In this document: one piece after another, positions 19,930-62,671 of the stretch
Numbering within the stretch: the stretch's first letter is position 1
How the letters are laid out: each line of letters opens with the position of its first letter
Position numbers and translations under genes: made by a program
Assembly: GCA_963740635.1 (NCBI GenBank)
Contig: CAVUEQ010000001.1
Location: 273,026-337,025 of the forward strand
DNA length: 64,000 nucleotides
From: an uncultured bacterium
GTDB lineage: Bacteria; Patescibacteriota; Saccharimonadia; UBA4664
Reading direction: 5' to 3'
The notes under the pieces: model-generated
The model's input: the letters and a program-made list of their open reading frames with translations, nothing else
Told to the model about the DNA's origin: nothing
The model's database searches: none

Positions 19930-20880
19930 CTATTTGTAGATGCGGACGTAATCGACGATGAGGCTGGCCGGGAAGGAAGTGGTGGCGTCGGGGTAGCCGG
20001 GGTCATCGCCGCCGACGGCCAGGTTGAGCAGGAGGTAATACGGGCGGTTGTAGATCCAGCGGGAGCCGAGCGATGATTGGCGGACGGTTTGGTAGGCGGT
20101 GCCGTCGACCGACCAGGTGATGGCCTGGGGCGACCAGTCGACGGCGTAAACGTGGAAACTGCTCGCGGCGCCGGTGCCGGGAAGAAATTGGAGTTCGCGG
20201 GCGATGCCGCCGGCGCCGGTGAAGCCCGGGCCGTGGAGGGTACCCGAAATGATGCCGGGGTCGCGGCCGTTGTTTTCCATGATATCGATTTCGCCGGTGT
20301 CGGAGTCGTCGGCCGGCAGCATCCAGAAGGCCGGCCACAGCCCGTTGCCGGCCGGGGTCTTGAGGCGGGTCTCGATGCGGCCGTATTGGACGGCGAAGAG
20401 GCCCTGGGTCTGGAGGCGGGCCGAGGTGATGTTGCAGGGGCCGAGGGCACAAGGCCCGGGCGGTGAGGCTGGGCGGCGGGCGGTGATCACGAGGTGGCCG
20501 GCGCCGTCCTGGGCTGCGTTGGCGGTACCCGGCAGGTAGTACTCCCACTCGTCGTTGCCCCAGCCCCATCCCCCCGTGTCGGTGTTCCAGCGCGCAGGGT
20601 CAGCGGGCGTGCCGGCCGGGCCGTTAAATTCGTCGGCCCAGATGGGTTGTGGTGGGGTTGGCTGGGGCGCCGGCGCCGGGGTTGGGGTGGACGTGGGCGA
20701 TGTATCGGCTCCGAGCAGTTTGGGCTGGGCCGGCCGGGGTGAGGCCGCCAGCCCTGCAGCAGGCAGGTCTGAAGCTGTCTTGGCGGCCGGCTTGGGCGCG
20801 GGCGTGAGGGCGAATGACACGCCCGCCGCCGTCAGCAGCAGGATGGCGGCGCCTAAATACAATTGCCGGAAATTTCGCAT
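19930..20880 (-). CDS. secreted glycoside hydrolase family 16 (beta-glucanase/laminarinase-like)
   Basis: 316 aa. A signal peptide and Pro/Thr linker are followed by WADEFNG...NDEWEYY...GEIDIMEN (the ExDxxE catalytic motif). Confidence 0.85.
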   Translation of the reverse strand: MRNFRQLYLGAAILLLTAAGVSFALTPAPKPAAKTASDLPAAGLAASPRPAQPKLLGADTSPTSTPTPAPAPQPTPPQPIWADEFNGPAGTPADPARWNTDTGGWGWGNDEWEYYLPGTANAAQDGAGHLVITARRPASPPGPCALGPCNITSARLQTQGLFAVQYGRIETRLKTPAGNGLWPAFWMLPADDSDTGEIDIMENNGRDPGIISGTLHGPGFTGAGGIARELQFLPGTGAASSFHVYAVDWSPQAITWSVDGTAYQTVRQSSLGSRWIYNRPYYLLLNLAVGGDDPGYPDATTSFPASLIVDYVRIYK

Positions 20881-29014: not shown

Positions 29015-30145
29015 CTAAGAGCGTGAGGCCAGTGCTGGTTGGGCGGCTTTTTGCTCCCAGGGAAATTCGTTGCGGCCAAAGTGGCCGTAAGCCGCGGTTT
29101 TTTCGTAGAGCGGCCGGCGCAGGTCCAGGCCGTCGATGATGCCTTTCACGCTAGTGTCGAGGAGATTGTCGGCAAACCGGCGCAATTGCGCGGGCGAGGC
29201 GGTGCTGGTGCCAAAGGTGCTGATTTCGAGGGCCACGGGTGCTTTGGCGCCGATGAAGTACGCCAGCGACACCTCGGCGCGGTCGGCCAGGCCGGCGGCT
29301 ACCAGATTCTTGGCGATGTAGCGGGCGGCGTAGGCGCCGGAGCGGTCGACCTTGGTCGGGTCTTTGCCGCTGAAGGCGCCGCCGCCCACGCGGGCGTAGC
29401 CGCCGTAGCCGTCGACCACGATCTTGCGGCCGGTGAGGCCGGCGTCGGAGGCCGGGCCGGGCTGGTGCCACACGCCGGTGCCGTTGAGAACCACGCTGCC
29501 CTCGGCGATGCTAAACCCATAGCGCTCGAGCACCGGGCTGATTACGCGGGTGTAAATGTCGGCAAACACGGTTTTGTGGGAGGTGTTTTCGTTGTGGGGT
29601 ACCGCAACTGTGACGTGGTCGATGCCCACCGCCTGCCCGTCTTTATACCGTACCGTTACTTGGGCCTTGCCGTCGGGCCGCAGGTAGCCGAGTTCACCCG
29701 TTTCGCGCGCCGTATCGATGGCGCGCGTGAGCGAATGGGCCAGCGTGATGGGCAGCGGCATGAGTTCCGGTGTTTGCTGGCAGGCAAATCCGAACATCAT
29801 GCCCTGGTCCCCCGCCCCATCCAGGTCTACGCCCTGGGCAATTTCCGGCGATTGGGCGCCGATGTAGTCGAAGACTTCACATTGGTCGGAAAATCCCCAG
29901 GCGGGATTGGTGTAGCCCAGGCGCTTGAGGGTGGCCCGCGCCACCGCCGTGTGGTCGATCTTGGCGGTGGTGGTGACCTCGCCGAGCAATATCAACCGGT
30001 TGCCGCCCACGGCCGTTTCCACGGCCACGCGGCCTTTCGGGTCCTGAGCCAAAATGGCGTCCAAAATCGCGTCTGAGACCTGGTCGCAGACTTTGTCGGG
30101 ATGGCCGGCACAGACCGACTCGCTGGTAAATACGTGTTGAGACAT
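29015..30145 (-). CDS. metK: S-adenosylmethionine synthetase
   Basis: 376 aa. FTSESVCAGHPDKVCDQVSDAILDA, GAGDQGMMFGFA and GGGAFSGKDPTKVDRS are MetK signature blocks. Confidence 0.95.
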   Translation of the reverse strand: MSQHVFTSESVCAGHPDKVCDQVSDAILDAILAQDPKGRVAVETAVGGNRLILLGEVTTTAKIDHTAVARATLKRLGYTNPAWGFSDQCEVFDYIGAQSPEIAQGVDLDGAGDQGMMFGFACQQTPELMPLPITLAHSLTRAIDTARETGELGYLRPDGKAQVTVRYKDGQAVGIDHVTVAVPHNENTSHKTVFADIYTRVISPVLERYGFSIAEGSVVLNGTGVWHQPGPASDAGLTGRKIVVDGYGGYARVGGGAFSGKDPTKVDRSGAYAARYIAKNLVAAGLADRAEVSLAYFIGAKAPVALEISTFGTSTASPAQLRRFADNLLDTSVKGIIDGLDLRRPLYEKTAAYGHFGRNEFPWEQKAAQPALASRS

Positions 30146-30148
30146 AGA

Positions 30149-30245
30149 ATATCTCTCCTGTTGAGGCTAGATGTGGCACCGTACGGCATAACCGCGGTTG
30201 CCGGCAGGTCAGTGGGCTAGATCCCTCGCTGCGCTCTTGATATGG
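30149..30245 (-). promoter_or_regulatory. SAM-I (S-box)-like riboswitch in the metK leader
   Basis: The minus-strand RNA is CAUAUCAAGAGCGCAGCGAGGGAUCUAGCCCACUGACCUGCCGGCAACCGCGGUUAUGCCGUACGGUGCCACAUCUAGCCUCAACAGGAGAGAUAUUCU-AUG. The conserved SAM-I blocks occur in order: UAUCAAGAG, GAGGGA, (C)UAGCCC, UGA, CCGGCAACC, GGUGCCA, AGAU. P1 is AUAUC/GAUAU. The SD (GGAG) lies inside the 3' part of the aptamer. Confidence 0.6.
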
Positions 30246-30295
30246 CTATTTAGTTGTGCGGTCAGTGTACCAGCGTTACCGGTTATGGCGCAAGC

Positions 30296-35007: not shown

Positions 35008-35397
35008 ATGTTAAAGGATTTTAAATCATTTTTGTTGCGCGGGAACGTGGTTGACCTGGCGGTGGCGGTGGTGATCGGGGCGGCCTTTGGGGCGGTGGTG
35101 ACGTCGATGGTGAAAGACTTAATCACGCCGCTAATTGGGGCGATTGGCGGGACGCCGGACTTCAGCGGGCTGTATGTCACCATCAACCATAGCCGGATAA
35201 TGTACGGATCATTTTTGAATGCGCTGATTGCCTTCGTGGTGATAGCAGGCGTAGTGTTTTTCTTTGTGGTGAAGCCAATAAATGTGCTTCTCACCCGCTT
35301 ACAGAGCGGCAAAGAGGCTGAGCCTACACCGAAAGATCCTCAGATTGAGCTGCTGGAGGAAATTCGGGACGCTCTGAAGTCTCAGAACCGGGGCTAG
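35008..35397 (+). CDS. mscL: large-conductance mechanosensitive channel
   Basis: 129 aa. MLKDFKSFLLRGNVVDLAVAVVIGAAFGAVVTSMVKDLITPLIG is near-canonical MscL. Confidence 0.95.
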   Translation: MLKDFKSFLLRGNVVDLAVAVVIGAAFGAVVTSMVKDLITPLIGAIGGTPDFSGLYVTINHSRIMYGSFLNALIAFVVIAGVVFFFVVKPINVLLTRLQSGKEAEPTPKDPQIELLEEIRDALKSQNRG

Positions 35398-38300
35398 GCC
35401 GGGGCCGGCGGCGCCGGCTGCCCCGGGCTCCAACCCAAGCCGGCAGCCGGCTGAGCTTGGAAAACCAGGAGTACAGGATGGGGGTGGTAAATAGTGACAG
35501 TACGCCCGAGGTCAGAATGCCGGCGATAATCACCAACGCCAGGCCGCGCCAAAACGGGCTGAGCAGGGCCAGCGGCAGCAGTGAGCCGAGGGCCGTGACC
35601 TTGGTGAGGAAAATGGGCCGGAAGCGCACGGCGGTGGCTTCGGCGATGGCCTCTTTTACCGGCACGCCCGCTTCCACGCGCTTGTTGGCATAGTCGATCA
35701 CGAAAATGCCGACATTGACCACGATGCCGGCCAGCGTGATGATGCCCAGAATTTCCAGAAAGCCGAATTCGTTATCGAGAATGGCCAGTATCGGGAACAC
35801 GCCAAGGAACGACAGCGGCAGGGCGAAGGTGATAATGATGGGTTTGAGGAAGCTGCGGAAGAAGAAGGCCAGCACCAGGTAAATGAGCAGCAGTGATATG
35901 GCCAGGGCCTCAAACAGGTTGGTGAAGGATTTGGCGATGTCGTCGCCCTCGCCTTTGTTTTCCAGGGCGTCGGAACGCAGGCCGGCCGCCGCCAGCTGGT
36001 CCTTGGCCCAGTTGCTGAGGTCGCTCTGGATCTTGAAACTATTGGCGTCGGTGGCGACGGCGGCCTGCACGGTGGCGTAGCGCAGACCGTTTTGGTGGAG
36101 GATGTTGCCTGAGGTGGTGTCGGTGCTGATGCCTGCGATCTGCGACAGCTGCACCGGGCCGGTGGGCGTGGCGACGGTGATGCGGCCGAGGCTGGCGGCG
36201 GTGGTGTAGTCGGCGGCGCCGGCGTAGCTCGCCACCACGTCGACGGTTTGGTCGCCGAGACCTAGCTTGGTCAGGGGCTGGGTGCCGAGCAGGCCGGCGA
36301 CCTGGGCGCCCACCGCTGCGGCGTTGAGGCCATGGGCGGCGGCCGCGGTCTTGTTGACGTTGATGCTGACTGCGGCGGTGGAACCGTCGGTATAGCCGTC
36401 GGACACCCGCGTGACGCCGGCCATGCCCCTGGCGTGATCAGCCACACGCAGCGCGAAGGCTTTGAGCTTAGTGAGATCGCCTTCATAGATCTGGATGACT
36501 ACCGGGAAGTCCGGCACCGGCGGCCCGGCGGAGAGGGTGCTGGCGGAGGAGTAAATCTGCTTGGCGGAGTCGTGGGGCAGGTCATTGTTGATTTGCTTCA
36601 CGAGCTCCTCGGCCTTGGTCGGGCGTTCGGCAATGGGAATTAGCGACAGGAACAGCGTGAAGCCGGTGGGCGACTGCTGGAAATAGTAGTAATTGGCGAT
36701 TTCATAATGGCTGTCCAGTGCCGTTTCGGTTTTGCGGGCAAGCGCGTCGATTTGCCCAGGGGTGGAACTGGCCGGAAACGACACGCTTACCAGGGCCTCG
36801 ACGGTGTCGTGGGGTTTGGAGAACTGGGCGCTTTTTACTTTGCCCGATGCAAACAGGTAGCCGGTAACCAATACCGGCGCGGCTACGGCCACGATCATGA
36901 TCAGGATTTGGAGCCAGGTGCGGCCAAGGATGAACAGGTTGGTGCGCTTAAACCAGCGGCTGACGGCCCACAGCGCGGCATCCTCGTCTTCGAGCTTGCC
37001 GGCGTGGTGGTGCGCGGGAATGAACTTGGCGGCCAGCGGCGCCAGGAAAATCAGCGGGATGAAAAACGATGCCACCAACGCCGGGATCACCGTGATGGGA
37101 ATAAATTTAATGATTTCCCCAAACACCCCCGACACAATGCCAAACGGCGTAAACACGATGATGGAGCAAAGCGTGGCCATCATCAGCCCGTTGCCAATGG
37201 AGTTCACGGCCGCCAGTACGCCCGCTTTGCCGGTTTGGCCGATGTCTTTGTGGCGCTGGATGCTTTCGAGCACCACAATAGCGGGGTCGACTACCAGGCC
37301 TAGCACCAGGATCATCGAAAACAGGGTGAGTGTGTTGAGCGTAATACCGGCTGCCCATAGCGCCAGCAGCGTGAACAGGAACGATAATGGTATGGCGATG
37401 CCGGCGATGAGGGCGGTGCGCAGGTTAACGAACAGGAACATGGCCAGCATCAGCAACCAGATGCCGCCGACGGCGTAACCGACCCAGGAGAGCGGACCGA
37501 TACCCTTCCATTTTTGGCCGATGGCGCCGGCTTTGATTTCGTTGATTTGCTCGGTGGTGTTGGCGGCATCGTCGAACAGCCGGGTGAGGGTGATGTCGCG
37601 GCTGATGGTGCCGTTGCCGGTGAGGCGCTTGAGCGCGGCGGTGAGGTCGTGGTCAACGGTAATGATGTCGGCGTCCGAGGCTATCGCCACGTTGTAGACC
37701 AGGCCGGGCCGGGAGACCGGGAAGCCGCTTTCGGGAACACCGATCCGGTTGATGGTGCCGTTTTGGTCGACACTGCGGGTGATGGTGGCAACCCGCGAGA
37801 GGGTTTCGCTGCCGCCGCCGGTGGTTGGCAGAGGCGTATTGCTCAGGTCATCGATGCTGGCGTCGCGGGCAGCGGTGAGGGCGGTGGCGCGCGAACCGTC
37901 GAGGGTGAGGCTGGAGCCGGCGGGCAGGTTGAGGTTGTTGGCCGCAATGGCCGAGGTTAAGGCCGATTGGTCGACCTTGGCTGCGGCGAGCTTCGCGGGG
38001 TCGAACACCACATTAACCTGGTCCTTGACGTCGCTGGCCAGTGTAACAGACTTTACACCCTTCACCTGCCCCACTTCCCGGGCAAAGATTTGGCCCTGGG
38101 CGAGCAGGGTTTCCAGCGAATCCGGCCCGCTGAGGCCAAACGTGAAGGCGGCGTTGCCGGTGGTGGGCTGCATGACTTCGGGTTTGTCGGCCGCGGTCGG
38201 CAAGGTCACGGAGGCGACTTTGGTCGTAATATTTTGCAGTCCGGCATCCAGGTTGGCATTTTCGTTGAGCGTAACGGTGATGAGCGAGTGGCTTTCAGAC

Positions 38301-38575
38301 GAGGTGGAGGCAAACGATTTGACCTCGTGGACATCGATGGCCGCCTCTAGCGGGGTCGTGACGCTGGTCTCAACTTCGCTGGCGGCCGCGCCCTTGTAAA
38401 CGGTGGAGACCACCACGATCTTCACCGGCACTTGCGGGAATCCTTCCCGGCGCAGGTTGATCAACGCGGCTGTCCCCCCGCCCACAAGCAGGATAAATAA
38501 CACGATCACAAGCTGGCGCCGGCCCATAAAAAAGCCGGTTAGCCGGCTGGCCCAATTTGCGCGCTCCTGATGCAT
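35324..38575 (-). CDS. RND-superfamily efflux permease (AcrB/AcrD/AcrF-type, 12 TM)
   Basis: 1083 aa with the duplicated TM/periplasmic-loop architecture. No membrane-fusion or outer-membrane partner gene is adjacent. The low-complexity C-terminal tail overlaps the mscL 3' end by 74 nt. Confidence 0.85.
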   Translation of the reverse strand: MHQERANWASRLTGFFMGRRQLVIVLFILLVGGGTAALINLRREGFPQVPVKIVVVSTVYKGAAASEVETSVTTPLEAAIDVHEVKSFASTSSESHSLITVTLNENANLDAGLQNITTKVASVTLPTAADKPEVMQPTTGNAAFTFGLSGPDSLETLLAQGQIFAREVGQVKGVKSVTLASDVKDQVNVVFDPAKLAAAKVDQSALTSAIAANNLNLPAGSSLTLDGSRATALTAARDASIDDLSNTPLPTTGGGSETLSRVATITRSVDQNGTINRIGVPESGFPVSRPGLVYNVAIASDADIITVDHDLTAALKRLTGNGTISRDITLTRLFDDAANTTEQINEIKAGAIGQKWKGIGPLSWVGYAVGGIWLLMLAMFLFVNLRTALIAGIAIPLSFLFTLLALWAAGITLNTLTLFSMILVLGLVVDPAIVVLESIQRHKDIGQTGKAGVLAAVNSIGNGLMMATLCSIIVFTPFGIVSGVFGEIIKFIPITVIPALVASFFIPLIFLAPLAAKFIPAHHHAGKLEDEDAALWAVSRWFKRTNLFILGRTWLQILIMIVAVAAPVLVTGYLFASGKVKSAQFSKPHDTVEALVSVSFPASSTPGQIDALARKTETALDSHYEIANYYYFQQSPTGFTLFLSLIPIAERPTKAEELVKQINNDLPHDSAKQIYSSASTLSAGPPVPDFPVVIQIYEGDLTKLKAFALRVADHARGMAGVTRVSDGYTDGSTAAVSINVNKTAAAAHGLNAAAVGAQVAGLLGTQPLTKLGLGDQTVDVVASYAGAADYTTAASLGRITVATPTGPVQLSQIAGISTDTTSGNILHQNGLRYATVQAAVATDANSFKIQSDLSNWAKDQLAAAGLRSDALENKGEGDDIAKSFTNLFEALAISLLLIYLVLAFFFRSFLKPIIITFALPLSFLGVFPILAILDNEFGFLEILGIITLAGIVVNVGIFVIDYANKRVEAGVPVKEAIAEATAVRFRPIFLTKVTALGSLLPLALLSPFWRGLALVIIAGILTSGVLSLFTTPILYSWFSKLSRLPAWVGARGSRRRRPRPSPGSETSERPEFPPAAQSEDLSV

Positions 38576-48180: not shown

Positions 48181-50373
48181 TCAAGAGGCCTCTGCTGCCA
48201 GCTTGCTTAAAAGAGAAATGACTTGTTCAACTGAGGTGATGTGGAACCGGGCGACGGAGTTGCTCAGCCCCACTTTAACTGTAAACGCGCCGACCGGCAG
48301 GGACGCGAACAGGTCCTCGTCGGTATAGTCGTCACCGATAGCCAGGATAAAATCGTAGGAACCGGCCGAAAGTTTTTCCTGGGCGGCGGCGCCTTTGGTG
48401 ATGAAACGGGGCTTGAATTCGAGGATTTTGTTGCCTTGGAACACCTCGATATCGGAGTCACGCAGGATTTTTTCGGTGTCATGCTTGAGGGCGGCGCGGC
48501 GGACGTAGGCGAGCTCGGGGGTGACATTGCGGTAGTGCCACACCAGCGAGAAGTTTTTTTCTTCGATGAAGGCGCCGGGCGTGCGCTCGGTGAACGTTTC
48601 CAGAATGTCGCGGAGGGGTTCTTTCCAGTCGGCTGGGAAGTTGGTGCGGGCGGCCCACTTGCCGTGGTCTTTTACCCAGGCGCCGTGCTCGGCTACGAGT
48701 GTAATCGGGAGTTTGCTAAACCAGGCGTCGAGGGCGCGCTTGGGCCGGCCGCTGACCATCATGAGCTCGCTGGTCTGGGAGAGTTTCTTGAGAATGCGCA
48801 GGAGCTTGCTTGAGGGTTTGCTCGACATGGGGCGGATGTCGGACACGAAGTTGGTGAGGGTGCCGTCATAGTCGAGCAGGAGCAGCCGCTTCTTGGCCCG
48901 GCGGTATTTAGCGATAATTTCCGACGCCGCCTTGGCGTCGAGGAGCTTGAGGTCGTGGGCTACGCGGCGCTCTTTGGCCTGGGAGAGCTGCTCGATGAAG
49001 TCCTGGGCCCAGCGCTCCAGGGTGTAGACGGAGAGGCGCTGCTGCATGATGTGGAGTTTGCGGCGCTGGGCGGTGGGGGTCATCTTGAGAGCGGCAACGA
49101 GTGCGCGCACCAGCTCGCCGCGGTGCAGCGGGTTGATGCGGATGGCCTCGGGCAGCTCGTCGGCCACGCCGGCCATTTCGCTGATGATGAGCGCGCCGCT
49201 GCGGCCCTGTTTGCTGGCGATGTACTCTTTGGCCACCAGGTTCATGCCGTCGCGCAGGGGGGTCACCAGGGCGACGTCGGCGCGGTAGTAGAGGGCCACG
49301 AGCTGCTCGAACGGCAGGTTTTTGTATTGGTACGAGATGGGCGACCAATCCACGGTGGAATACTGGCCGTTGATGCGGCTGACAATGCGCTCAATTTCCT
49401 CCCGCATGTGCTGGTAGGCTTCGATGTCTACGCGCGACGGCACGGCTACCACTACCAGCGTGAGCTTTTTGAGCCAGCGCTTATTGCGGCTTAGGAATTC
49501 GTCGAAGGCAACGAGTCGCTCGGGGATGCCCTTGGAGTAGTCGAGCCGGTCGACCGACAGGATGATTTTCTGGTCGGCGTAGCGTTTTTTTAGCGCCACC
49601 AACTCGGCTTTCACGGCTGGTAACTTAGGGGCTTCTGCAAATTTGGTGTAGTCGATGCCAATCGGGAAAACGTCGGCGCGCACCATCCGCTCGCCCACTA
49701 TCACTGAGCTCATCTGGCTTTCATACCCGAGCGTGCGCAGGACGGCGCTCAGGAAGTGCCGGACGTAGTCGTAAGTGTGGAAGCCGAGCAGGTCGGCGCC
49801 GAGCAGGCCCTCCACGATTTCTTTGCGGTCTGGCAGCAGGCGGTAGATTTCGTACGACGGGAACGGGATGTGCAAAAAGAAACCGATGGATGCGTCCGGG
49901 AGCTCGTCGCGCAGCATTTTGGGCAGCACCATGAGGTGGTAGTCGTGGATCCAGACCTGCGACTGCGGCGAGGCGTATTTGAGCACGGCCGCCAGGAAGA
50001 GCTTGTTGACCTTTTTGTACTCTTCCCAAAACTCGGGTTTGTGCACGGTGAGCGATTGGAAATAATGAAAAAGCGGCCACAGGGTCGCGTTGGCGTAGCC
50101 GTCGTAGAAGTTGGTGACCTGTTTTGAGCTGAGGAATACCGGATAGCAAAGGTATTTTTCGAGCTCGCGGCGGATGGTTTTCTTGTCGTCGGGGGTGAGT
50201 TCGTCGGAGCTAATACCGGGCCAACCCACCCAGACGTACTCGCGGGTTCGGCCGAGCGACGACATGGCGGTGGCGAGTCCGCCGGCGCTGGGTTCAAAGG
50301 TTAGTTTGCCGTTTACCTTTTTGACGACCACGGGGAGGCGGTTTGACACAACGATCAATGATGGTGCGGCCAA
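48181..50373 (-). CDS. otsA: bifunctional trehalose-6-phosphate synthase / trehalose-phosphatase fusion
   Basis: 730 aa. The N-terminal GT20 part reads LIVVSNRLP...GGLATAM...WIHDYHL. The C-terminal HAD phosphatase part reads [10 protein letters not shown]...[10 protein letters not shown]. Confidence 0.9.
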
Positions 50374-51798: not shown

Positions 51799-52797
51799 TT
51801 GCTCATACCCGAGAAACTTGCCAGCGGCGGACTGGGTGATGCCCCTGTGACCACAATTGTCATCTTCACGCGGACATTAATTGCAGACGGGTACCCGTTT
51901 AGCAGTAAATATCTTTGGAACGCCTATTTGGATTTGATGTTGGCAATTAAGGCTCGCGGGGCGCAGGCGTATTTTGCGAGCGGCATGGGCAGTTATGCCG
52001 GCGGCGGCGTTTTCCGGCGGGCGTACACGGCCGGCCGCAAGGTGGGGGTGAGCGAATTTGAGCTAGCGCGCGATGTGAAAGCTGACCTGGTGTTTGAGAA
52101 GGGCGGGTTTACGGGCCGTGACATGCCGGTGATAAATCAGGAATTTGTGAGCAAAATTGCCGGCGACAAGGCCGAGACCTACCGGCTGTTTGGCAAGTAT
52201 CAGCCGGTGACGGTGATGTGTAACGGTGAGCGCGAACTTAGGGCGGCCATCAAGCAGCTTCCCGGCGACCGCGTGGTGCTGAAGGCGCCGGTGAGCAATA
52301 AGGGCCGCGAGGTTTGGATAGGCTCCAAAGCTGAGGCGCCGGAGAATTTGCCGGCCGGCTATCCCCTGCTGGTCCAGGAGTTTCTGGATACGTCGGTGGG
52401 CGTACCGGGTTTGGCGGCCGGCGTTCATGACGTGAGGGTCAAAATTGCCGGCGGCAAAATCCTGGGCGGCATGGTGCGCATACCGGCGCCGGGAGAGCTG
52501 CGGGCCAATGTGGACCAGGGCGGCTCGGCGCGGCATTTGTATCTGGACGAGCTGCCCACAGCGGCCGTCAAAATGGCCGGGGAAATTGATTGCTATTTTG
52601 AACGCTATCCCCGATACTATGCAATTGATATGGCCAACACTCCATGGGGGTGGAAGCTGATAGAGTTGAACAATAAGCCAGGGCTATCACCTATTGCACT
52701 CAGCGCCCAGGCCAAACACGTTACCGAATCATTAGCCGACTACTTAATTTCGGAAGCCAGCCATGGTCCTCTACCACCAAACCAAGCAGCGCAATAA
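51799..52797 (+). CDS. ATP-grasp ligase (RimK/YheC-D-like)
   Basis: 332 aa. VVLKAPVSNKGREVWIG, LLVQEFL, HDVRVKI, ANVDQGGSA and LIELNNKPG are ATP-grasp core strands. The TTG start is uncertain. Confidence 0.7.
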   Translation: MLIPEKLASGGLGDAPVTTIVIFTRTLIADGYPFSSKYLWNAYLDLMLAIKARGAQAYFASGMGSYAGGGVFRRAYTAGRKVGVSEFELARDVKADLVFEKGGFTGRDMPVINQEFVSKIAGDKAETYRLFGKYQPVTVMCNGERELRAAIKQLPGDRVVLKAPVSNKGREVWIGSKAEAPENLPAGYPLLVQEFLDTSVGVPGLAAGVHDVRVKIAGGKILGGMVRIPAPGELRANVDQGGSARHLYLDELPTAAVKMAGEIDCYFERYPRYYAIDMANTPWGWKLIELNNKPGLSPIALSAQAKHVTESLADYLISEASHGPLPPNQAAQ

Positions 52798-54097
52798 GTT
52801 CCTGTTCGTGAACGCCTTCTCGCCGGCCCAGTCCGAGGCGTTGGTGAAATTTAGCAAAGTCGTGGGGTATGCGGTGGAGCCGCTGCTGCTGTTTGACAAC
52901 AAGAAGACCGTGAAGCCGTGGCTGGAAGCGCTGGAGCCGAAGACAATTGTGCGGGTGGATATTACCGACACCGGGGCGATCCAGACGGCCCTCAAGCCGT
53001 ACCAGGACGAAATCCTGTCGGCCACAACTCTTAGCGACGCTAACGTGCCGCATCTGCGCAAGGTGGTGCCGCTGCTCCCCTACTGCAACCTGCCCACCGA
53101 GAAGTCATTGGAGTGGACCACCGAGAAGATCAAAATGCGGGCGCTGCTGCGTAATTACGACAAGTCTATCGCGCCGAATTTTTTGGTGGTGGGCGATGAC
53201 ACCGCCAGCACGATCGAGCGCATCCAGAAGCGCATCGGTTATCCGCTGGTGGTGAAGCCTTCGGGGCTGGCGGCGAGCCTGCTGGTGAGTGTGTGCTATC
53301 ACCGCGAAGAGCTGGAAAAGGCCCTGCGCCTAAGTGTTAAGAAAATCGAGCAGGTCTACAAGGCTAAGCGCGGGCGCGGTGCGCCGCAGCTGCTGGTGGA
53401 GGAATTTCTGGAAGGCGACATGTACTCGATAGATGCTTATGTGAACGCCCGCGGGGTAGTGTATTTTGCGCCGGCGGTGTACGTGAAGACCGGCCGCGAG
53501 GTGGGATTTGACGATTTCTTTGGTTACATGCGGCTGACGCCGACCCAGCTGAACCAGCACCATGCCGGGGAGGCGCAAGAGGCGGCCGAGAAAGGCATCC
53601 GGGCGCTGGGCATGCGCAGCACCACCTGCCACATCGAGCTGATTCGCACTGAAACGGGTTGGAAAGTGGTGGAGATCGGCCCACGCATCGGGGGCTTCCG
53701 GCACGAGATGTACGAGCGCTCGTTTGGCATTGACCACTCGCTCAACGACATGCTCATCCGGGTGCCCAAGCAGCCGATACTGCCCAAGAAGGTCAAGGGT
53801 TACACGGCCGTGATGCAGTTTTATGCCCGCCGCGAGGGGTATCTCGAGAAAATTCAGGGGTTGTTTAAGATTGAGGCGCTGGCTACGGTGCAGCGCGTGC
53901 GCGTGCGCAAAGAGCCCGGCGACCGGCTGACGTTTGCCAAAAACGGCGGCGACCCGGTGTTGGAGGTGGTGCTGTTTGATCCGTCACGGTCCAACGTGCT
54001 GGCCGACATCCGCCGCACCGAGCAGCATCTAAATATCATGGTGTCGGTCAAAAGCCAGGAGGCTAAGAGCGCTGAGGCGTCGAAGCCTCAGGCGTGA
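52763..54097 (+). CDS. ATP-grasp ligase (L-amino-acid-ligase/carboxylate-amine-ligase-like, with pre-ATP-grasp N-domain)
   Basis: 444 aa. YPLVVKPSGLAAS, LLVEEFLEGDMYSIDAYV and CHIELIRTETGWKVVEIGPRIGG are present. It overlaps the upstream ligase by 35 nt. Confidence 0.75.
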   Translation: MVLYHQTKQRNKFLFVNAFSPAQSEALVKFSKVVGYAVEPLLLFDNKKTVKPWLEALEPKTIVRVDITDTGAIQTALKPYQDEILSATTLSDANVPHLRKVVPLLPYCNLPTEKSLEWTTEKIKMRALLRNYDKSIAPNFLVVGDDTASTIERIQKRIGYPLVVKPSGLAASLLVSVCYHREELEKALRLSVKKIEQVYKAKRGRGAPQLLVEEFLEGDMYSIDAYVNARGVVYFAPAVYVKTGREVGFDDFFGYMRLTPTQLNQHHAGEAQEAAEKGIRALGMRSTTCHIELIRTETGWKVVEIGPRIGGFRHEMYERSFGIDHSLNDMLIRVPKQPILPKKVKGYTAVMQFYARREGYLEKIQGLFKIEALATVQRVRVRKEPGDRLTFAKNGGDPVLEVVLFDPSRSNVLADIRRTEQHLNIMVSVKSQEAKSAEASKPQA

Positions 54098-55711: not shown

Positions 55712-55969
55712 TCACCGGTGCAATGATTGCAGTGACGTGGCGCACTCCAGGTAGAAAAGCTGGGTTATTGCTCGAGCAGTTTTTGATGGGTCGAAATAAT
55801 AGTCGCGCCAGCCGTCGGCGAAATCGTCGTATTCGGCTTCGGGGACGTTGGCGTGGGTGAACTCGATGGTGGTGCTGTTCCCTTCCGGTTTGAGCTTGAA
55901 GCTGTCCTTTTCGCTGCGCTCGGGGTTGTCGTGGCCGTGCCAGTCTTGCTCGAGCAATTCCGGCGGCAC
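55712..55969 (-). pseudogene. 5'-truncated SRPBCC/AHSA1-like gene fragment
   Basis: Only the C-terminal roughly half of the domain is present (...STTIEFTHANVPEAEYDDFADGWRDYYFDP...). In-frame stops lie immediately upstream of the GTG start. Deleting one base from the T5 run at 55780-55784 would give the family-like ending ...YYFDPSKLLEQ*. Confidence 0.4.
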
Positions 55970-55995: not shown

Positions 55996-56024
55996 TTGAC
56001 ATAATGTTGCAAAAAAAGATAAAT
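55996..56024 (+). promoter_or_regulatory. near-consensus sigma70-type promoter of the GT2-GH18 operon
   Basis: TTGACA (55996-56001), a 17-nt spacer, then ATAAAT (56019-56024). This places the ORF-track ATG at 56004 upstream of the predicted transcription start. Confidence 0.5.
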
Positions 56025-56060
56025 CCTGTTATACTTTTGTTCAACATTTGTTTTCTGCAG

Positions 56061-58418
56061 ATGGGGCTGCGCATCAAGGGCGCGGTATTTGATCGAGAGG
56101 TAGAGTTTCTAACTGTGAGAAGCCAAAAACATCACATTAAGCCAGCGCGCAGGCGTCAATGGGGCGCCGAGCGCCGCACAACGCCGTTGCCTGTTGTGCA
56201 TGCTCGTCCGTCAACTAGGCTGATCACATCGAGCCGATTGGCTATCGTGGTCACGGTGCTGATGTGGTTGGCGTATGTGGTTTCGGTGATTATCCGGCAA
56301 TTTTTCGAAGGTCCTCATAGCTTCCAGTTCACGATGCAGGCAATTGGCTATGTGGTGGTGGTGACGTTCCTTACGTTTTCGGCTTTGATGTATTTGATCG
56401 CCCGTCAGGGTGCTCTACAGCGGTTTAGCAAACATATCCGTGTACCGCGGGCCGAGCTGGACCGGCACTTTTCGCATGAGCGGTCGTCGATTACAGTGCT
56501 GGTGCCCTCGTACAGCGAGGAGCCGGGGGTGGTCCGTAAAACCTTGATTTCCGCGGCGCTGCAGGAATACCCCGGATTGCGGGTGGTGCTGCTGCTTGAT
56601 GACAATCCAAACCCGACAAATCCGCCTGTGGCGGCGCGGCTGGAGGCGACACGGGTATTGGCTGGAGACATTATGAAACTCATGTCGAAGCCGCGCGTAC
56701 GGTTTGGCGACGCGCTGGCGCGGTTTGAAAAAGACAATGCCAAGGCTTCATTTGCGAGCTCTGACGAAGTGCGCGAATTGGCCGGGCATTATGCCTGGGC
56801 TTCGGCATGGCTAAATGCGCAGGCCGATAATGAAGAGGTTGAGGACCATGTGGATGTGTTCTTTGGTGAGCAGGTGCTGCGGGGTTTGGCCGGCGAGCTC
56901 AGCTTGGTTGGCGAGGCTCTGGATGCTTCGTGCACTGAAGGAGCGCGAATACCGGCATCGCGCGTGAGTCAGCTGTACCGGCGCTTGGCTTGGATTTTTG
57001 AAGCTGAGATAGAGGTGTTCGAGCGCAAAAAATACGCTTCACTATCGCATGAGGCGAACAAAGCCATGAACCTGAATTCGTATATCGCTCTGATGGGCGG
57101 TACCTACCGGCGGGTGCAAACCCCCGACGGGATTGTGCTCGTGCCGGCCGCCGGGCGCAGCCAAAACACGGTCACATTTCCGGATAGCGATTTTTTGCTT
57201 ACACTGGACGCAGATTCCATTCTGCTGCGGGATTATTGCCTGCGCTTGGTCTATTTCCTGCAACGGCCAGATAATGCCCGTGTGGCGGTAACCCAGACCC
57301 CCTACTCATCATTTCGTGGGGCGGGTACCCGCATTGAACGTCTGGCCGGCGCCACTACCGACATTCAGCACATTTTGCATCAGGGCATGAGCCACTATGG
57401 GGCGACGTTTTGGGTGGGGGCGAACGCGGTAATTCGCAAGCGAGCGCTCGAAGACATCGCCGAAACGGAATGGGTGGGCGGATTTGAGGTCCGCCGTTTT
57501 ATCCAGGACCGCACAGTGATCGAAGACACCGAGTCGAGCATTGACCTGGCCAAGCACAGCTGGACGCTCGTAAATTACCCGGAGCGGCTGAGCTACAGCG
57601 CGACGCCGCCGGACTTTGGTTCGTTGATTGTGCAGCGCCGGCGTTGGGCCAACGGCGGCCTCCTGATTCTGCCGAAGCTGTGGGCAACCGTGCGTGCGCG
57701 CCGCAGCCGCAGCGAGTTGGTGGCGAGCACTGAGGTACTGCTGCGGTTGAACTATATGGCCTCGATCGCATGGGCGAGCTTTGGCCTCATCTTTCTGCTG
57801 GCGTATCCCTACGATGGCCGCCTGTTGAGTCCTTTTGTGCTCCTGGCTGCTCTCCCATATTTTCTGGCCATGGCCAGCGATTTGAAATATTGCGGCTACA
57901 AGCGAAGTGACGTGTTGAGGATTTATGGCTTTAACCTGATTTTGCTGCCGGTAAATCTGGCCGGCGTACTGAAGTCCCTGCAGCAGGCGCTAAGTGGCAA
58001 GAAAATCCCATTCGCGCGCACGCCCAAGGTAAAAAATCGCACCACTTCGCCAATGCTGTACGTAGTGGCGCCGTTGCTGATCGTGGGGTTCTCGTTGTTT
58101 ACGCTATGGCGCGACGAGACCGCCCAAAACTGGGGCAACGCGGCCTTTGCGGCTTTCAATGCGTTTGTGGCGGCTTGGGCAATTCTGGCCTACATCGGTG
58201 TCGGTAACACTTTGATTGATATTTGGCGCGGCCTTACGAATTGGCTGTATGTGGAAGTTGATAGCAACCCGAAGACTCCAACCAGCAAAGGTGAGGGCGT
58301 GCTCGATTGGCGCGCGGTCCTTTATCATGGTGACGCCAAGGAAACGGTGCCGGTAATCGCGCCAAATTATGCCGCCGCTGGCACAATGCCGGCCGAGAAG
58401 AGACAGGTGACGTCGTGA
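56061..58418 (+). CDS. processive family-2 glycosyltransferase (cellulose/chitin/hyaluronan-synthase-like) with flanking TM helices
   Basis: DD lies near nt 56598, DAD at 57207-57215, ED near 57522 and QRRRW (QxxRW) at 57633-57647. There are 2 TM helices N-terminal and several C-terminal. The start is uncertain (56061, GTG 56115 or GTG 56196). Confidence 0.8.
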   Translation: MGLRIKGAVFDREVEFLTVRSQKHHIKPARRRQWGAERRTTPLPVVHARPSTRLITSSRLAIVVTVLMWLAYVVSVIIRQFFEGPHSFQFTMQAIGYVVVVTFLTFSALMYLIARQGALQRFSKHIRVPRAELDRHFSHERSSITVLVPSYSEEPGVVRKTLISAALQEYPGLRVVLLLDDNPNPTNPPVAARLEATRVLAGDIMKLMSKPRVRFGDALARFEKDNAKASFASSDEVRELAGHYAWASAWLNAQADNEEVEDHVDVFFGEQVLRGLAGELSLVGEALDASCTEGARIPASRVSQLYRRLAWIFEAEIEVFERKKYASLSHEANKAMNLNSYIALMGGTYRRVQTPDGIVLVPAAGRSQNTVTFPDSDFLLTLDADSILLRDYCLRLVYFLQRPDNARVAVTQTPYSSFRGAGTRIERLAGATTDIQHILHQGMSHYGATFWVGANAVIRKRALEDIAETEWVGGFEVRRFIQDRTVIEDTESSIDLAKHSWTLVNYPERLSYSATPPDFGSLIVQRRRWANGGLLILPKLWATVRARRSRSELVASTEVLLRLNYMASIAWASFGLIFLLAYPYDGRLLSPFVLLAALPYFLAMASDLKYCGYKRSDVLRIYGFNLILLPVNLAGVLKSLQQALSGKKIPFARTPKVKNRTTSPMLYVVAPLLIVGFSLFTLWRDETAQNWGNAAFAAFNAFVAAWAILAYIGVGNTLIDIWRGLTNWLYVEVDSNPKTPTSKGEGVLDWRAVLYHGDAKETVPVIAPNYAAAGTMPAEKRQVTS

Positions 58419-59974
58419 GCGCTGAACCGCAGCGGCGCTTGTCGCCCTGGCGGGTGGCGCTGGCGGTCTTGATATTGGCCGGGGGTATCGCCGGCGGGGC
58501 ATTTGGTGGCCAGCGATGGTTGGCAGACCGTCTGGGCGGGTCTCATGAGCCATGGTTTGCCAGCTACGTGGATGTGACAGCGACGCCCGCCTTCGCTTTC
58601 GACCAGATGGGCACCACGCCAAACCGAGACGCTGTGCTGTCGTTTGTAGTGTCGCTGCCGGCAGAGCCCTGCACCCCTGCTTGGGGGGGCGCGTACACAT
58701 TGGCACAGGCTAGCGGTTCGCTAGATTTGGACCGGCGAATCGCACGGCTCAAGCAGCAGGGTGGGAACGTTGCAGTGTCGTTTGGGGGTATGAAGAACCA
58801 GGAATTGGCCGTAGGATGCAGTGAACCGGATAAGCTTACGAACGCGTACCGGTCGGTGGTGGAGCAATACAGAATCGAAACAATTGATTTGGATTTGGAA
58901 AATGACGGCCTCACCAACACCGTTGCCGGTGAGCGCCGAGCTGAGGCGATCGCCAAGCTGCAGTCGGAGCGCCGCGCCCTGGGCAAAAAGCTGGCGGTGT
59001 GGGTGACGCTGCCGGTGACACCGCAGGGGCTCAATGAGGACGGCACAAATGCCGTCGCCCAGCTTTTGGCGAAGGGTGTGGACTTGGCCGGCGTAAACGT
59101 TATGACGATGAATTATGGCTCTAGCCGGCCGCAGGGTCAATCTATGCTGGCCGCTTCCGAAAGTGCGTTGACCCAGACCCAGCGACAGCTGGGTGTGCTT
59201 TACCAGAGCAGGGGTCTGAACCTCAGTGCAAGTACGCTCTGGTCGAAGGTAGGCGCCACACCGATGATCGGCCAAAATGACGACGCCGACGAGGTGTTTA
59301 CGATCGATGACGCCAATGGTTTGAACCAATTTGCCAGGCTGCATGGGGTGGGACGAATGTCGATGTGGTCGGCCAACCGTGACCTTACATGCGGTGGCAA
59401 CTATGTGGATGTGAAGGTGGTTTCGGATTCATGCAGCGGCGTTGTCGAAGACAAGCACGGTTTTGGGGCCGTGCTGGGCGCCGGATTTACGGGTAGCTTG
59501 AAGCAGAGCGCCGGCGTGGTTACCACCCAAGAGAAGGCTTCGACTGTGCAGACGGCGGACAACCCCGCCGAAAGCCCATACCAGATCTGGGCGGCGGCGG
59601 GGGCGTATCTCCAGGGCACGAAGGTCGTGTGGCACCACAATGTGTACGAGGCCAAATGGTGGACTCAGGGTGACATGCCTGATAACCCCGTGCTTCAGAG
59701 TTGGCAGACTCCCTGGGATCTGATTGGTCCGGTGCTGCCTGGTGAGAAGCCGATTCCACAGCCGACTCTGCCTGCTGGAACCTACCCGGATTGGGTGGGA
59801 ACCGCCACCTACAACACTGCCGACAGGGTGCTATTTAACGGCGTCCCCTATCAGGCCAAATGGTGGAACCAGGGCCAAAGCCCGGCTGCTGCTTCATCAA
59901 ATGCCGACAGTTCGCCTTGGACTCCGCTCACTCAAGCTCAAATCAACACGCTGCTGTCTGCTTCTAGCAAATAG
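58415..59974 (+). CDS. membrane-anchored GH18 chitinase-like hydrolase with two C-terminal CBM5/12-type chitin-binding modules
   Basis: 519 aa. The GTG start overlaps the GT2 stop (GTGA). An N-terminal TM helix is present. The GH18 block is VSFGG...IDLDLE (DxDxE at 58886-58900), with later ...MNYG and MIGQND blocks. Two YxAKWW(T/N)QG modules lie at about 59576-59719 and 59780-59929. Confidence 0.85.
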   Translation: MSAEPQRRLSPWRVALAVLILAGGIAGGAFGGQRWLADRLGGSHEPWFASYVDVTATPAFAFDQMGTTPNRDAVLSFVVSLPAEPCTPAWGGAYTLAQASGSLDLDRRIARLKQQGGNVAVSFGGMKNQELAVGCSEPDKLTNAYRSVVEQYRIETIDLDLENDGLTNTVAGERRAEAIAKLQSERRALGKKLAVWVTLPVTPQGLNEDGTNAVAQLLAKGVDLAGVNVMTMNYGSSRPQGQSMLAASESALTQTQRQLGVLYQSRGLNLSASTLWSKVGATPMIGQNDDADEVFTIDDANGLNQFARLHGVGRMSMWSANRDLTCGGNYVDVKVVSDSCSGVVEDKHGFGAVLGAGFTGSLKQSAGVVTTQEKASTVQTADNPAESPYQIWAAAGAYLQGTKVVWHHNVYEAKWWTQGDMPDNPVLQSWQTPWDLIGPVLPGEKPIPQPTLPAGTYPDWVGTATYNTADRVLFNGVPYQAKWWNQGQSPAAASSNADSSPWTPLTQAQINTLLSASSK

Positions 59975-60018: not shown

Positions 60019-60283
60019 ATGACTTACCGCGAAATACTCCACACACAGCAGCAGGTGAACGAGCGGATCGCCGGGATGGCGGCCGAGATACCACGCCGCG
60101 CGGGTTGAGTTTGTGGTGCTCGTGAAGAAGCACAAAGACCCACCAATAGCCCACGAGGTGGCGACTTTTGGCTTTGAGACGCCGGATAACTGGCTGATTG
60201 GGATGGGCATGGACGACCCCAGGATCGCCCCGGAAGCCAATCGCTGGGCTGGTTGGATCGCCGTCGCGAACAACCGGAGATAA
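60019..60283 (+). pseudogene. hpt: hypoxanthine phosphoribosyltransferase remnant with internal deletion and frameshift
   Basis: The N-terminal piece is MTYREILHTQQQVNERIAGMAAEI..* (stop at 60106). The C-terminal piece, in the +1 frame, is EFVVLVKKHKDPPIAHEVATFGFETPDNWLIGMGMDD...*. It aligns to the Hpt C-terminus (LLDKPSRR..V..GF.IPD.FVVGYG.D). About 100 central codons, including the PRPP loop, are absent. Confidence 0.55.
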
Positions 60284-62193: not shown

Positions 62194-62424
62194 ATGATTA
62201 CTAAAGCCACACTTTATCTGGATTCAGACATGTACAAGGCCCTCAAGTTACGCGCGGTCGAAACTGGTCAGTCTATATCTACCTTAATGAACGATGCCCT
62301 GCAGGCACAGCTGGGTGAGGATTTGGAGGATATTGAAGCTATTCGCTCACGACTGGCTAAGAATGAGACGCCCCTTACCTACGAGGCTGCTTTACTAGAA
62401 TTAAAAAACAATGGCTCTATATAG
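62194..62424 (+). CDS. ribbon-helix-helix antitoxin (paralog of 8431..8661)
   Basis: 76 aa. MITKATLYLDSDMYKALKLRAVETGQSISTLMNDAL is an RHH N-terminus. It overlaps the toxin gene by 14 nt. Confidence 0.7.
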   Translation: MITKATLYLDSDMYKALKLRAVETGQSISTLMNDALQAQLGEDLEDIEAIRSRLAKNETPLTYEAALLELKNNGSI

Positions 62425-62671
62425 TATCGAGATCTTGCCAAGTGTTATTCGAAAGGACTTAGTGCGACTCCCCAAAACCGATGTTCAGAGAATAATGAGT
62501 CGTATCAAAGATCTCGGTGATGATCCGCGCCGGCCCTGGTCAAAAAAACTTTCGGGAAGGGAAGAATACCGAGCAAGACAGGGAAACTACCGGATACTGT
62601 ATGTTATTGAAGACGCAATCAGGGTAGTCCAGGTGACAAAAGTTGGCCATCGCCGCGAAATCTATCAATGA
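62411..62671 (+). CDS. RelE/ParE-family type II toxin (paralog of 8667..8918)
   Basis: 86 aa. ...DLVRLPKTDVQRIMSRIKDLGDDPRP...YRARQGNYRILYVIEDAIRVVQVTKVGHRREIY. Confidence 0.85.
   Translation: MALYSIEILPSVIRKDLVRLPKTDVQRIMSRIKDLGDDPRRPWSKKLSGREEYRARQGNYRILYVIEDAIRVVQVTKVGHRREIYQ

Follow-up and report, generated by a model that had tools for sequence, protein, structure and literature searches.

A two-gene cassette of a processive GT2 synthase and a membrane-anchored GH18/CBM5-12 enzyme, predicted to make and process a GlcNAc-containing polymer in Saccharimonadia and other mainly monoderm bacteria

A 64-kb stretch of DNA from an uncultured member of the Saccharimonadia (GCA_963740635.1, contig CAVUEQ010000001.1, positions 273,026 to 337,025; hereafter, the window) encodes a predicted polysaccharide synthase of glycosyltransferase family 2 (GT2; 56115..58418 on the + strand, 767 aa) and, directly downstream, a membrane-anchored enzyme of glycoside hydrolase family 18 (GH18) that carries two family 5/12 carbohydrate-binding modules (CBM5/12; 58415..59974, + strand, 519 aa). 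Both genes were delimited from the open reading frame (ORF) list and Pfam, with the starts of homologues as additional evidence for the synthase. The two genes very probably form a functional synthase-hydrolase unit and, judged from sequence, the pair appears to be a self-contained, horizontally mobile two-gene cassette of mainly monoderm bacteria. The reading favored here, with a probability of roughly 60%, is that GT2 makes a wall-associated exopolymer containing N-acetylglucosamine (GlcNAc) and that the GH18 enzyme processes it.

Results

The synthase and the hydrolase occur as a pair

A scan of one genome per species recovered relatives of GT2 in at least 541 species, and the surrounding genes were analyzed for the best 80 loci. 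Among these, a GH18/CBM homologue lies directly downstream of GT2 in 79, and the contig of the remaining locus ends at GT2; the partner is adjacent in every locus with room for it (79 of 79). It is encoded on the strand of GT2 in 75 of the 76 evaluable loci, and, across 76 loci, the pairwise identities of one protein track those of the other (r = 0.93). No other gene of the window recurs across the 80 loci. The other shared clusters, considered as further cassette genes, were rejected as shadow frames or Leifsonia-specific synteny.

The coupling extends to the reading frames themselves and, in some cases, to a single polypeptide. In the window, the TGA stop of GT2 overlaps the GTG start of the GH18 gene as GTGA (...ACG TCG TGA against GTG AGC GCT) and a Shine-Dalgarno sequence, AGGTGA, stands 5 nt upstream, together forming a predicted translational coupling site (58406..58418, +). 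Upstream of a conserved RRLSPWR motif, GTG 58415 is the only start codon of the GH18 gene. Overlaps of 1 or 8 nt between the two genes also occur in Diaminobutyricibacter, in Reticulibacter, and on one further contig. Two homologues of ~1295 aa (P0031 and P0104) are single-chain fusions of GT2, the anchor helix, the GH18 domain, and both CBMs, and a further long relative (P0368) likewise joins GT2 to GH18/CBM. An initial annotation, made from the letters of the window, had noted the GTGA overlap and proposed a synthase encoded in one operon with its cognate hydrolase, to be checked by co-conservation in other genomes; the recurrence of the overlap in other phyla, the fusions, the unbroken adjacency, and the co-variation of the two proteins all strongly support this proposal.

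Horizontal spread and plasmid copies

The best 80 carriers belong to the Saccharibacteria, other Patescibacteria (Levyi-, Woese-, and Collierbacteria and WWE3), Ktedonobacteria, many Microbacteriaceae (Leifsonia, with L. xyli subsp. cynodontis among them, Humibacter, Cryobacterium, and Frigoribacterium), and Firmicutes, with Paenibacillus and Paenisporosarcina among the named genera. Identities between phyla (0.64–0.71) are as high as those within the Saccharibacteria (0.68), which points to horizontal spread. Four contigs of metagenome-assembled genomes (MAGs) that carry the cassette are labelled Gammaproteobacteria or Bdellovibrionales (L052, L055, L057, and L068); the rest of the named carriers belong to monoderm lineages. 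Taxon labels of MAGs can be in error, and these four could reflect either transfer into diderms or mis-binning.

Copies of the cassette are also found on plasmids, where they adjoin insertion sequence (IS) elements. Thirteen dairy plasmids of Lactococcus lactis/cremoris carry it intact, beside prtP/prsA and an IS6 transposase. In L. lactis pUC063A (L081; NZ_CP016715.2, ~41.9–45.7 kb), GT2 and the partner are 53% and 48% identical, respectively, to the window proteins. RefSeq calls the Lactococcus GT2 from a downstream start (636 aa vs ~750) and labels the partner ‘hypothetical protein’, and the Lactococcus pan-plasmidome paper lists pUC063A with the cassette genes unmentioned. An intact copy on plasmid pNicSoilB8 of Arthrobacter sp. 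NicSoilB8 (L082; NZ_AP024656.1, ~190–199 kb) alone departs from the usual gene order among the loci seen: the partner is divergent and upstream of GT2, and beyond GT2 follow another GH18 gene, which is shorter, and a gene for a GGDEF protein. A phage or defense-system origin of the cassette was rejected, as no relative was found among 2.9 million viral contigs and PADLOC returned no matches.

The GT2 synthase

GT2 matches the Pfam family Glyco_trans_2_3 (E 1e-35, 123.6 bits against a cut-off of 27), and a homologue search recovered >5000 relatives. The maximal ORF runs from ATG 56004 to 58418 (+, 804 aa), but the true start is most likely GTG 56115 (767 aa), because homologues begin at the position of V38 (MRSKKA... 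in homologues vs VRSQKH... here); ATG 56004 falls within the proposed promoter. Residue numbers below count from GTG 56115 and all features lie on the + strand. The initial annotation had credited the enzyme with the full processive motif set (DD, DAD, ED, and QRRRW) and with transmembrane (TM) helices on both sides of the catalytic domain. Alignment recovers all four motifs opposite their BcsA/PgaC counterparts, and they are invariant in 79 of 79 homologues; hydropathy supports membrane segments at both ends. On this motif test, GT2 would be a member of the processive membrane GT2 polysaccharide synthase superfamily.

Two N-terminal TM helices are predicted at residues 42–60 and 77–95 (56238..56399) from hydropathy, with helices at 34–65 and 70–104 in an AlphaFold2 (AF2) model. 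The DD motif (162–163; 56598..56603) is the predicted uridine diphosphate (UDP)-binding motif closing the first beta-alpha-beta unit of the GT-A domain; it is invariant in alignments of relatives and aligned with the DDG segment of BcsA. NKAMNLN (315–321; 57057..57077) is column-matched by hhalign to HAKAGNINN of E. coli BcsA, such that it would be the counterpart of HAKAGN with its diphosphate-binding lysine, and is kept in 79 of 79 homologues, as are LDADS, which contains the predicted metal- and donor-binding DxD motif (DAD, 365–367; 57207..57215, aligned with the DxD of BcsA and PgaC), and FWVGAN (432–437; 57408..57425), which aligns as the counterpart of the BcsA acceptor-site motif FFCGS. 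The predicted catalytic base lies in ED (470–471; 57522..57527) within VIEDTES (468–474), aligned with TED of BcsA, and the predicted processivity and acceptor-stacking motif is QRRRW (507–511; 57633..57647), which reads QRGRW in the Lactococcus copy.

Between DD and KAxN, alignments and the AF2 model place a helical insertion of ~125–150 residues (170–294 and beyond; 56622..56996) that is missing from BcsA, PgaC, and NodC in the alignments. It contains two conserved blocks, DHVDxFF and QLYRRLAW, and its helices are the best part of the otherwise poor GT2 model (block-mean predicted local distance difference test, pLDDT, mostly 70–92). In position, the insertion is comparable, by analogy only, to the plant-conserved region (P-CR) of plant CesA. 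At the C-terminus, a hydrophobic bundle of four to five segments (545–696; 57747..58202; AF2 helices 538–708) is presumed to be the polymer channel. The C-terminus would be cytoplasmic and the number of TM helices even, because the N-in anchor of the partner follows directly in the fusions. The AF2 model, built from 46 homologues at 71–78% identity to the window protein (number of effective sequences 1.7), has a pLDDT of 57 that falls below 50 in the catalytic core, and its top Foldseek matches (CesA, BcsA, and the hyaluronan synthase HAS) speak to the general fold only.

The GH18 partner

The partner begins with a signal-anchor helix (residues 9–32; 58439..58510, +, as for all features of this gene; hydropathy, AF2 helix 11–40). 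It is predicted to be N-in, with the catalytic domain outside the cell, because RR precedes the helix, and it is kept as an internal TM helix in the fusions P0031 and P0104. A TIM-barrel domain follows (~46–360; 58550..59494; PDB profile search and Foldseek) with the GH18 motifs SFGG (122), DLDLE (158–162; 58886–58900), MTMNYG, and MWSANRD. SFGG and DLDLE are invariant in the family; in MxM(D/N)Y, N replaces D in both the window and the Lactococcus copies. Searched against the PDB, the family profile matches S. venezuelae chitinase 1 (9buf, E 1e-61) and a P. furiosus chitinase (2dsk, E 2e-26); the target-normalized Foldseek TM-scores of the AF2 barrel to the two are 0.90 and 0.84, and the identities of the domain are 36% and 26%. 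Membership in GH18 rests on the profile match to solved chitinases and on the fold match to 9buf, and the partner is, as far as its sequence can tell, a PF-ChiA-type GH18 enzyme with an intact substrate-assisted catalytic motif.

Two CBM5/12 modules occupy the C-terminal part, at ~388–436 (59577..59722; YEAKWWTQG) and ~457–505 (59783..59929; YQAKWWNQG; best Pfam stretch 460–502). Pfam CBM_5_12 (PF02839) scores 41.9 bits against a cut-off of 26.2 over the two stretches, AKWW(T/N)QG lies at residues 413 and 481, and two KWW motifs are kept in 75 of 78 partner homologues. PDB matches of the second module are the CBM5/12 modules of chitinase C and MmChi60. A DNA repeat (D4, 59649–59670 / 59853–59874) falls within the coding part of the modules. 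The anchored GH18 enzyme with its DxDxE and the two chitin-type modules were both described in the initial annotation and are recovered here, and its concern that the domain might be a catalytically dead member is answered, by motif, through the presence of DxDxE in 78 of 78 homologues.

Interchangeable partners in the wider GT2 clade

An exhaustive search (E <= 1e-30) delimited a GT2 clade of 573 clusters at 50% identity, the members of which are full-length down to ~36% identity, insertion included. Eighteen members are unusually long. Six of these carry a C-terminal polysaccharide deacetylase of carbohydrate esterase family 4 (CE4), several with the TFDDG and HSxxH motifs; the other fusions are to EAL (4), LytR-CpsA-Psr (LCP; 2), Acyl_transf_3 (1), an amidase-like DMFA2_C domain (1), and GH18/CBM (1). 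Clade members with EAL, CE4, LCP, Acyl_transf_3, or DMFA2_C are P0366, P0372, P0374, P0375, P0390, P0419, P0468, P0478, P0410, P0386, P0409, P0421, P0471, and P0416. Among sampled members without a fusion, two at 52% and 43% GT2 identity have an overlapping GH18/CBM partner that keeps SFGG and DxDxE, two at 44% and 37% have an adjacent CE4 gene (one with MBOAT nearby), and two have no partner. These counts of partner types come from small samples; with that in mind, the synthase of this clade looks like a modular platform on which the partners that process the product can be exchanged.

Pfam finds no PilZ, GGDEF, or EAL domain in the window pair, and thus no receptor for cyclic di-GMP (c-di-GMP); a c-di-GMP link, by way of the EAL fusions, is present in the wider clade and not in the window cassette. 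By its sequence, the cassette does have the hallmark of a synthase-dependent exopolysaccharide system, a predicted synthase and a product-modifying enzyme encoded together.

Homology does not assign the sugar

Assignment of the sugar by homology was attempted through NCBIfam, Pfam, the PDB, and hhalign and was rejected, as GT2 lies about as far from BcsA as from PgaC. The hhalign scores, taken against S. meliloti NodC and otherwise against E. coli proteins, are 71 for BcsA, 70 for PgaC (probability 95% for each of these two), 51 for NodC (over 46 N-terminal columns only), and 41 for OpgH. The best NCBIfam match is CelA, and BcsA is the only solved structure matched by sequence (E 3e-13). GT2 falls far short of every equivalog cut-off: 76.7 bits vs 699.1 (TIGR03030) and 30.2 vs 992 (NF008558) for BcsA/CelA, with no PilZ domain detected by Pfam; 44.7 vs 422.3 (TIGR03937) for the poly-N-acetylglucosamine (PNAG) synthase; and 22.4 vs 550 (TIGR04242) for NodC. 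There is no Chitin_synth_1 or Chitin_synth_2 Pfam match to the window GT2 at E <= 0.01, and chitin synthases are missing among its PDB matches by both sequence and Foldseek. A few distant clade members have partial, sub-threshold matches to Chitin_synth_2 (21–26 bits vs a cut-off of 27).

Discussion

Nature of the product

The initial annotation had read the pair as making and processing a chitin-like polymer. The making-and-processing part is strongly supported, in the form of the synthase-hydrolase unit; the GlcNAc content is reached indirectly, through the partners, and GT2 homology lends it no support. Catalysis by GH18 enzymes is substrate-assisted and requires a 2-acetamido sugar at the -1 subsite, and CE4 enzymes strip acetyl groups from GlcNAc-type polymers. 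A GlcNAc-containing product is favored because two unrelated ‘chitin-active’ families, GH18 and CE4, are recurrently joined to one synthase clade, and the LCP, acyltransferase, and EAL partners in turn suggest a wall-associated, c-di-GMP-linked exopolymer. A beta-1,4 linkage is favored over beta-1,6 because the partner is a chitinase-type GH18 with CBM5/12 modules. The narrower claim that the members of the clade are true synthases of chitin (beta-1,4-GlcNAc), with no relation to eukaryotic chitin synthases (CHS) or NodC, and that with GH18 they form a mobile ‘make-and-trim chitin’ cassette, is offered tentatively, as is the chitin- or chitosan-like surface layer for attachment or protection that it might provide to ultra-small, episymbiotic Patescibacteria, possibly their actinobacterial hosts, and dairy lactococci.

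In the proposed mechanism, GT2 would be embedded in the membrane, its split GT-A domain facing the cytoplasm, and would use a UDP-sugar (most likely UDP-GlcNAc) to polymerize a beta-linked chain that contains GlcNAc. The product, a chitin-like beta-1,4 chain or chito-oligomers, would be threaded outward through the C-terminal helix bundle of the synthase itself. The partner would be held at the outer face by its single N-in helix, probably packed against the synthase, where the two CBM5/12 modules could grip the emerging chain and the GH18 site could cut, release, size, or possibly transglycosylate it, comparable to the roles of BcsZ, PgaB, and AlgL. In distant clade members, a CE4 deacetylase, an LCP wall ligase, or an O-acyltransferase would take the place of this partner, with EAL as a c-di-GMP link. 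For the Saccharimonadales host, an episymbiont whose genome is ~0.83 Mb, this would mean a polymer on the cell surface.

Several points weigh against a GlcNAc-containing product. By sequence, GT2 stands no nearer to transferases of GlcNAc than to those of glucose, and its KAxN, xEDxE(S/T), and FxxG(A/S)N variants look more BcsA-like than NodC- or chitin synthase-like. The GT2 model (core pLDDT <50) is too poor for its donor pocket to be inspected, and the Pfam GH18 score of the partner (PF00704, 23.5 bits) is below the gathering cut-off of 29.6. The evidence from partners is not unique to GlcNAc, as peptidoglycan is a possible substrate of GH18, CE4, and LCP enzymes alike and CBM5 members also bind cellulose. 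A host supply of UDP-GlcNAc beyond wall synthesis is not visible in 64 kb, and an incomplete search of the full-text literature found no description of the pair or biochemistry of any member.

In an alternative that is considered unlikely, the synthase would make a non-GlcNAc beta-glycan (cellulose-like or a mixed glucan), and the GH18/CBM enzyme would leave that product uncut and instead open peptidoglycan locally for the chain to cross the thick monoderm wall, with CE4 and LCP acting likewise in sister clades. Cellulose synthases are the only PDB sequence matches of GT2, with CelA as best NCBIfam match and BcsA-like motif variants, but the synthase is as near to PgaC as to BcsA. GH18 includes lysozyme-type and peptidoglycan activities and CE4 includes peptidoglycan deacetylases; against this, the closest relatives of the GH18 domain are true chitinases (S. 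venezuelae chitinase 1, at 36% identity and TM 0.90, as well as P. furiosus ChiA), two chitin-type CBM5/12 modules are kept in 75 of 78 homologues, and a CE4 fused to a synthase parallels PNAG systems, where it is the product that the deacetylase modifies. The named carriers are for the most part monoderm, as this alternative would have it, and there is a precedent in Streptomyces, where CslZ and the ‘chitin-type’ lytic polysaccharide monooxygenase (LPMO) LpmP remodel peptidoglycan for passage of the CslA glycan (PMC9040799). The single-chain fusions and the 1:1 coupling are better suited to an enzyme that works on the nascent chain.

Improbable, and more so than a peptidoglycan-opening role, is a factory for short, soluble chito-oligosaccharides, whether short chains or oligomers chopped by the chitinase, that would serve as signals or decoys to plants, fungi, or host bacteria. 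A hydrolase at the channel exit, fused 1:1, would suit the cutting of every chain, and an association with plants or soil is common among the carriers (for example, Leifsonia with L. xyli, further Microbacteriaceae, Saccharibacteria from soil, and Ktedonobacteria), but dairy Lactococcus plasmids carry the cassette where no plant or fungus is present. NodC shows that a bacterial GT2 is able to make chito-oligomers; the match to NodC, however, spans only 46 N-terminal residues, and GT2 has the full C-terminal bundle and QRRRW of polymer-forming synthases. CBM5/12 modules typically bind insoluble or crystalline substrate, and the LCP and CE4 partners in sister clades indicate a wall-associated polymer that is retained. 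The same idea has been raised for proteobacterial chitin synthases (Gonçalves et al., PMC5122149). That the genes are mere neighbors, with a nutritional or antifungal chitinase beside a GT2 for an unrelated glycan, is close to refuted. Databases do label the partner chitinase or carbohydrate-binding protein, and the same label is to be expected for the window protein taken alone, but such a chance arrangement does not fit adjacency in 79 of 79 loci across several phyla with no other conserved neighbor, conserved start/stop overlaps, one-chain fusions, the co-variation of r = 0.93, or a partner with a membrane anchor in place of a cleavable secretion signal. A GlcNAc-containing, wall-associated exopolymer that is made and processed by the pair remains the preferred reading.

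Comparison with known systems

The logic of a synthase with a cognate hydrolase is known from the Bcs, Pga, Alg, and Pel systems; new here are the GT2 clade with its insertion domain, the pairing with a GH18/CBM protein, the minimal form of only two genes, and the spread through monoderms including Patescibacteria. As in BcsA/BcsZ, a processive GT2 with D, DxD, (T)ED, QxxRW, KAxN, and a predicted channel of its own is encoded adjacent to a hydrolase. The present system differs in having no PilZ, BcsB, or BcsC, in a GT-A domain split by the ~150-residue insertion, and in a hydrolase that is GH18 with CBM5/12 rather than GH8 and is anchored, coupled, and sometimes fused. PgaC/IcaA with PgaB/IcaB (and Streptomyces MatAB) pair a GT2 for a GlcNAc homopolymer with a CE4 enzyme, and sister clades of the present GT2 are CE4-linked; here, however, the partner is a GH18 with chitin-type CBMs, there is no PgaD/IcaD, and GT2 is far larger, with the insertion. 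NodC is likewise a bacterial GT2 for beta-1,4-GlcNAc chains but aligns over the 46 N-terminal residues only and has neither the long C-terminal bundle nor a hydrolase partner.

Eukaryote-derived division-1 CHS have been described in about a dozen, mainly proteobacterial, species, with bacterial chitin or chito-oligomers as the proposed product and the function untested (PMC5122149); this was the sole ‘bacterial chitin synthase’ report among the full texts searched, and it concerns another family. These horizontally acquired, Gram-negative operons include an epimerase and DUF1501/DUF1800 and encode Chitin_synth Pfam domains (Gonçalves et al. 2016, PMC5122149), whereas the present GT2 forms its own clade with no chitin-synthase Pfam match, occurs mostly in monoderms, and has a GH18 partner. 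The Streptomyces CslA-GlxA-CslZ-LpmP system, the product of which is reported as cellulose, has three partner enzymes for the remodeling of peptidoglycan: a glucanase of GH6, an LPMO of AA10, and a copper oxidase (PMC9040799). It resembles the present pair as a monoderm membrane GT2 with membrane-associated glycan enzymes that deposit a glycan outside the wall, but it includes no GH18 and is not a strict two-gene cassette. The chitinases 9buf and 2dsk belong to the same GH18 subgroup as the partner, with SxGG, DxDxE, MxM(D/N)Y, and W-S-x-N-R-D all kept; those are secreted degradative enzymes, whereas the present enzyme is predicted to be anchored uncleaved and is encoded after, or fused to, a synthase.

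Promoter region and genomic setting

Two overlapping candidate sigma-70-like promoters lie in the AT-rich region upstream of GT2 (55996..56035, +; direct reading and consensus scan). TTGACA-17-ATAAAT, named in the initial annotation as a near-consensus promoter, is present at 55996–56024 and as an exact string is unique in the window, but its second hexamer has no A at the critical position 2, and statistically the string is weak, with such sites not enriched in the region over shuffled sequence (4 vs 2.3 ± 1.6). The overlapping TTGCAA-17-TGtTATACT (56007–56035), with an extended -10, is the better fit and was accepted by the consensus scan. A promoter here is plausible by position, in the sole AT-rich gap directly upstream of the GT2 gene. 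Rfam, searched for a leader RNA upstream of GT2, returned no match.

The neighbors of the pair are unrelated to it: ATP-grasp ligases, PadR, a phosphoribosyltransferase, DUF6325, SHOCT, and a ParE toxin gene behind a small ORF. An 85-aa truncated SRPBCC/AHSA1 remnant (55712–55969, -; profile positions 58–117 of 125) abuts the upstream AT-rich region. Downstream, a 74-aa frame (60059–60280, +) resembles by eye the C-terminal tail of a purine phosphoribosyltransferase; it has no Pfam match and is not relied on. Such gene remnants flanking the cassette may be scars of insertion. No convincing direct or inverted repeats flank the cassette and no compositional island was found. The ParE-family toxin gene (62411–62671, +) lies ~2 kb downstream of the cassette and overlaps a small ORF (62194–62424), presumably the antitoxin; toxin genes (YafQ/ParE and Zeta toxin) also flank the cassette in another carrier contig (L088).

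Elsewhere in the window, an S-adenosylmethionine (SAM, S-box) riboswitch (30146–30246, -; Rfam RF00162, 54 bits) stands directly upstream of metK (29015–30145, -). A GH16 beta-glucanase-like protein with a partial SKN1/KRE6 match (19930–20880, -) may bear on surface or host-wall biology, and 9910–12273 holds a phosphoenolpyruvate (PEP) synthase gene, the best named relatives of which are from Candidatus Saccharimonadales. The window is rich in ‘accessory’ functions for a genome of ~0.83 Mb, among them a three-domain LigD (phosphoesterase-ligase-primase/polymerase; 15708–18182, -), an OtsA-OtsB fusion (trehalose-phosphate synthase/phosphatase; 48181–50373, -), an AcrB-type resistance-nodulation-division (RND) pump (35324–38575, -), and two adjacent ATP-grasp ligases (51799–54097, +).

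Implications

To our knowledge, chitin is regarded as a eukaryotic polymer, and its bacterial record consists of the oligomers made by NodC and of a few chitin synthases of eukaryotic origin whose function is untested. Should the cassette indeed make a chitin-like polymer, bacterial chitin synthesis would be widespread (at least 541 species; 573 clusters at 50% identity) and would be based on an independent GT2 lineage. The pair and its relatives would then represent a fifth class of synthase-dependent exopolysaccharide systems and would account for ‘chitinases’ in genomes without a chitin diet. Intact copies reside in tractable organisms, namely Lactococcus lactis, whose dairy plasmids offer a food-grade test system, as well as Leifsonia, Paenibacillus, and Reticulibacter. 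Were the product something other than chitin, the strict coupling of synthase and hydrolase, with CE4, LCP, and EAL as alternatives, would constitute a new modular system. Little is understood of how Saccharibacteria attach to their hosts or of their surface biology in general, and a chitin-like product of the cassette would give them a defined surface polymer.

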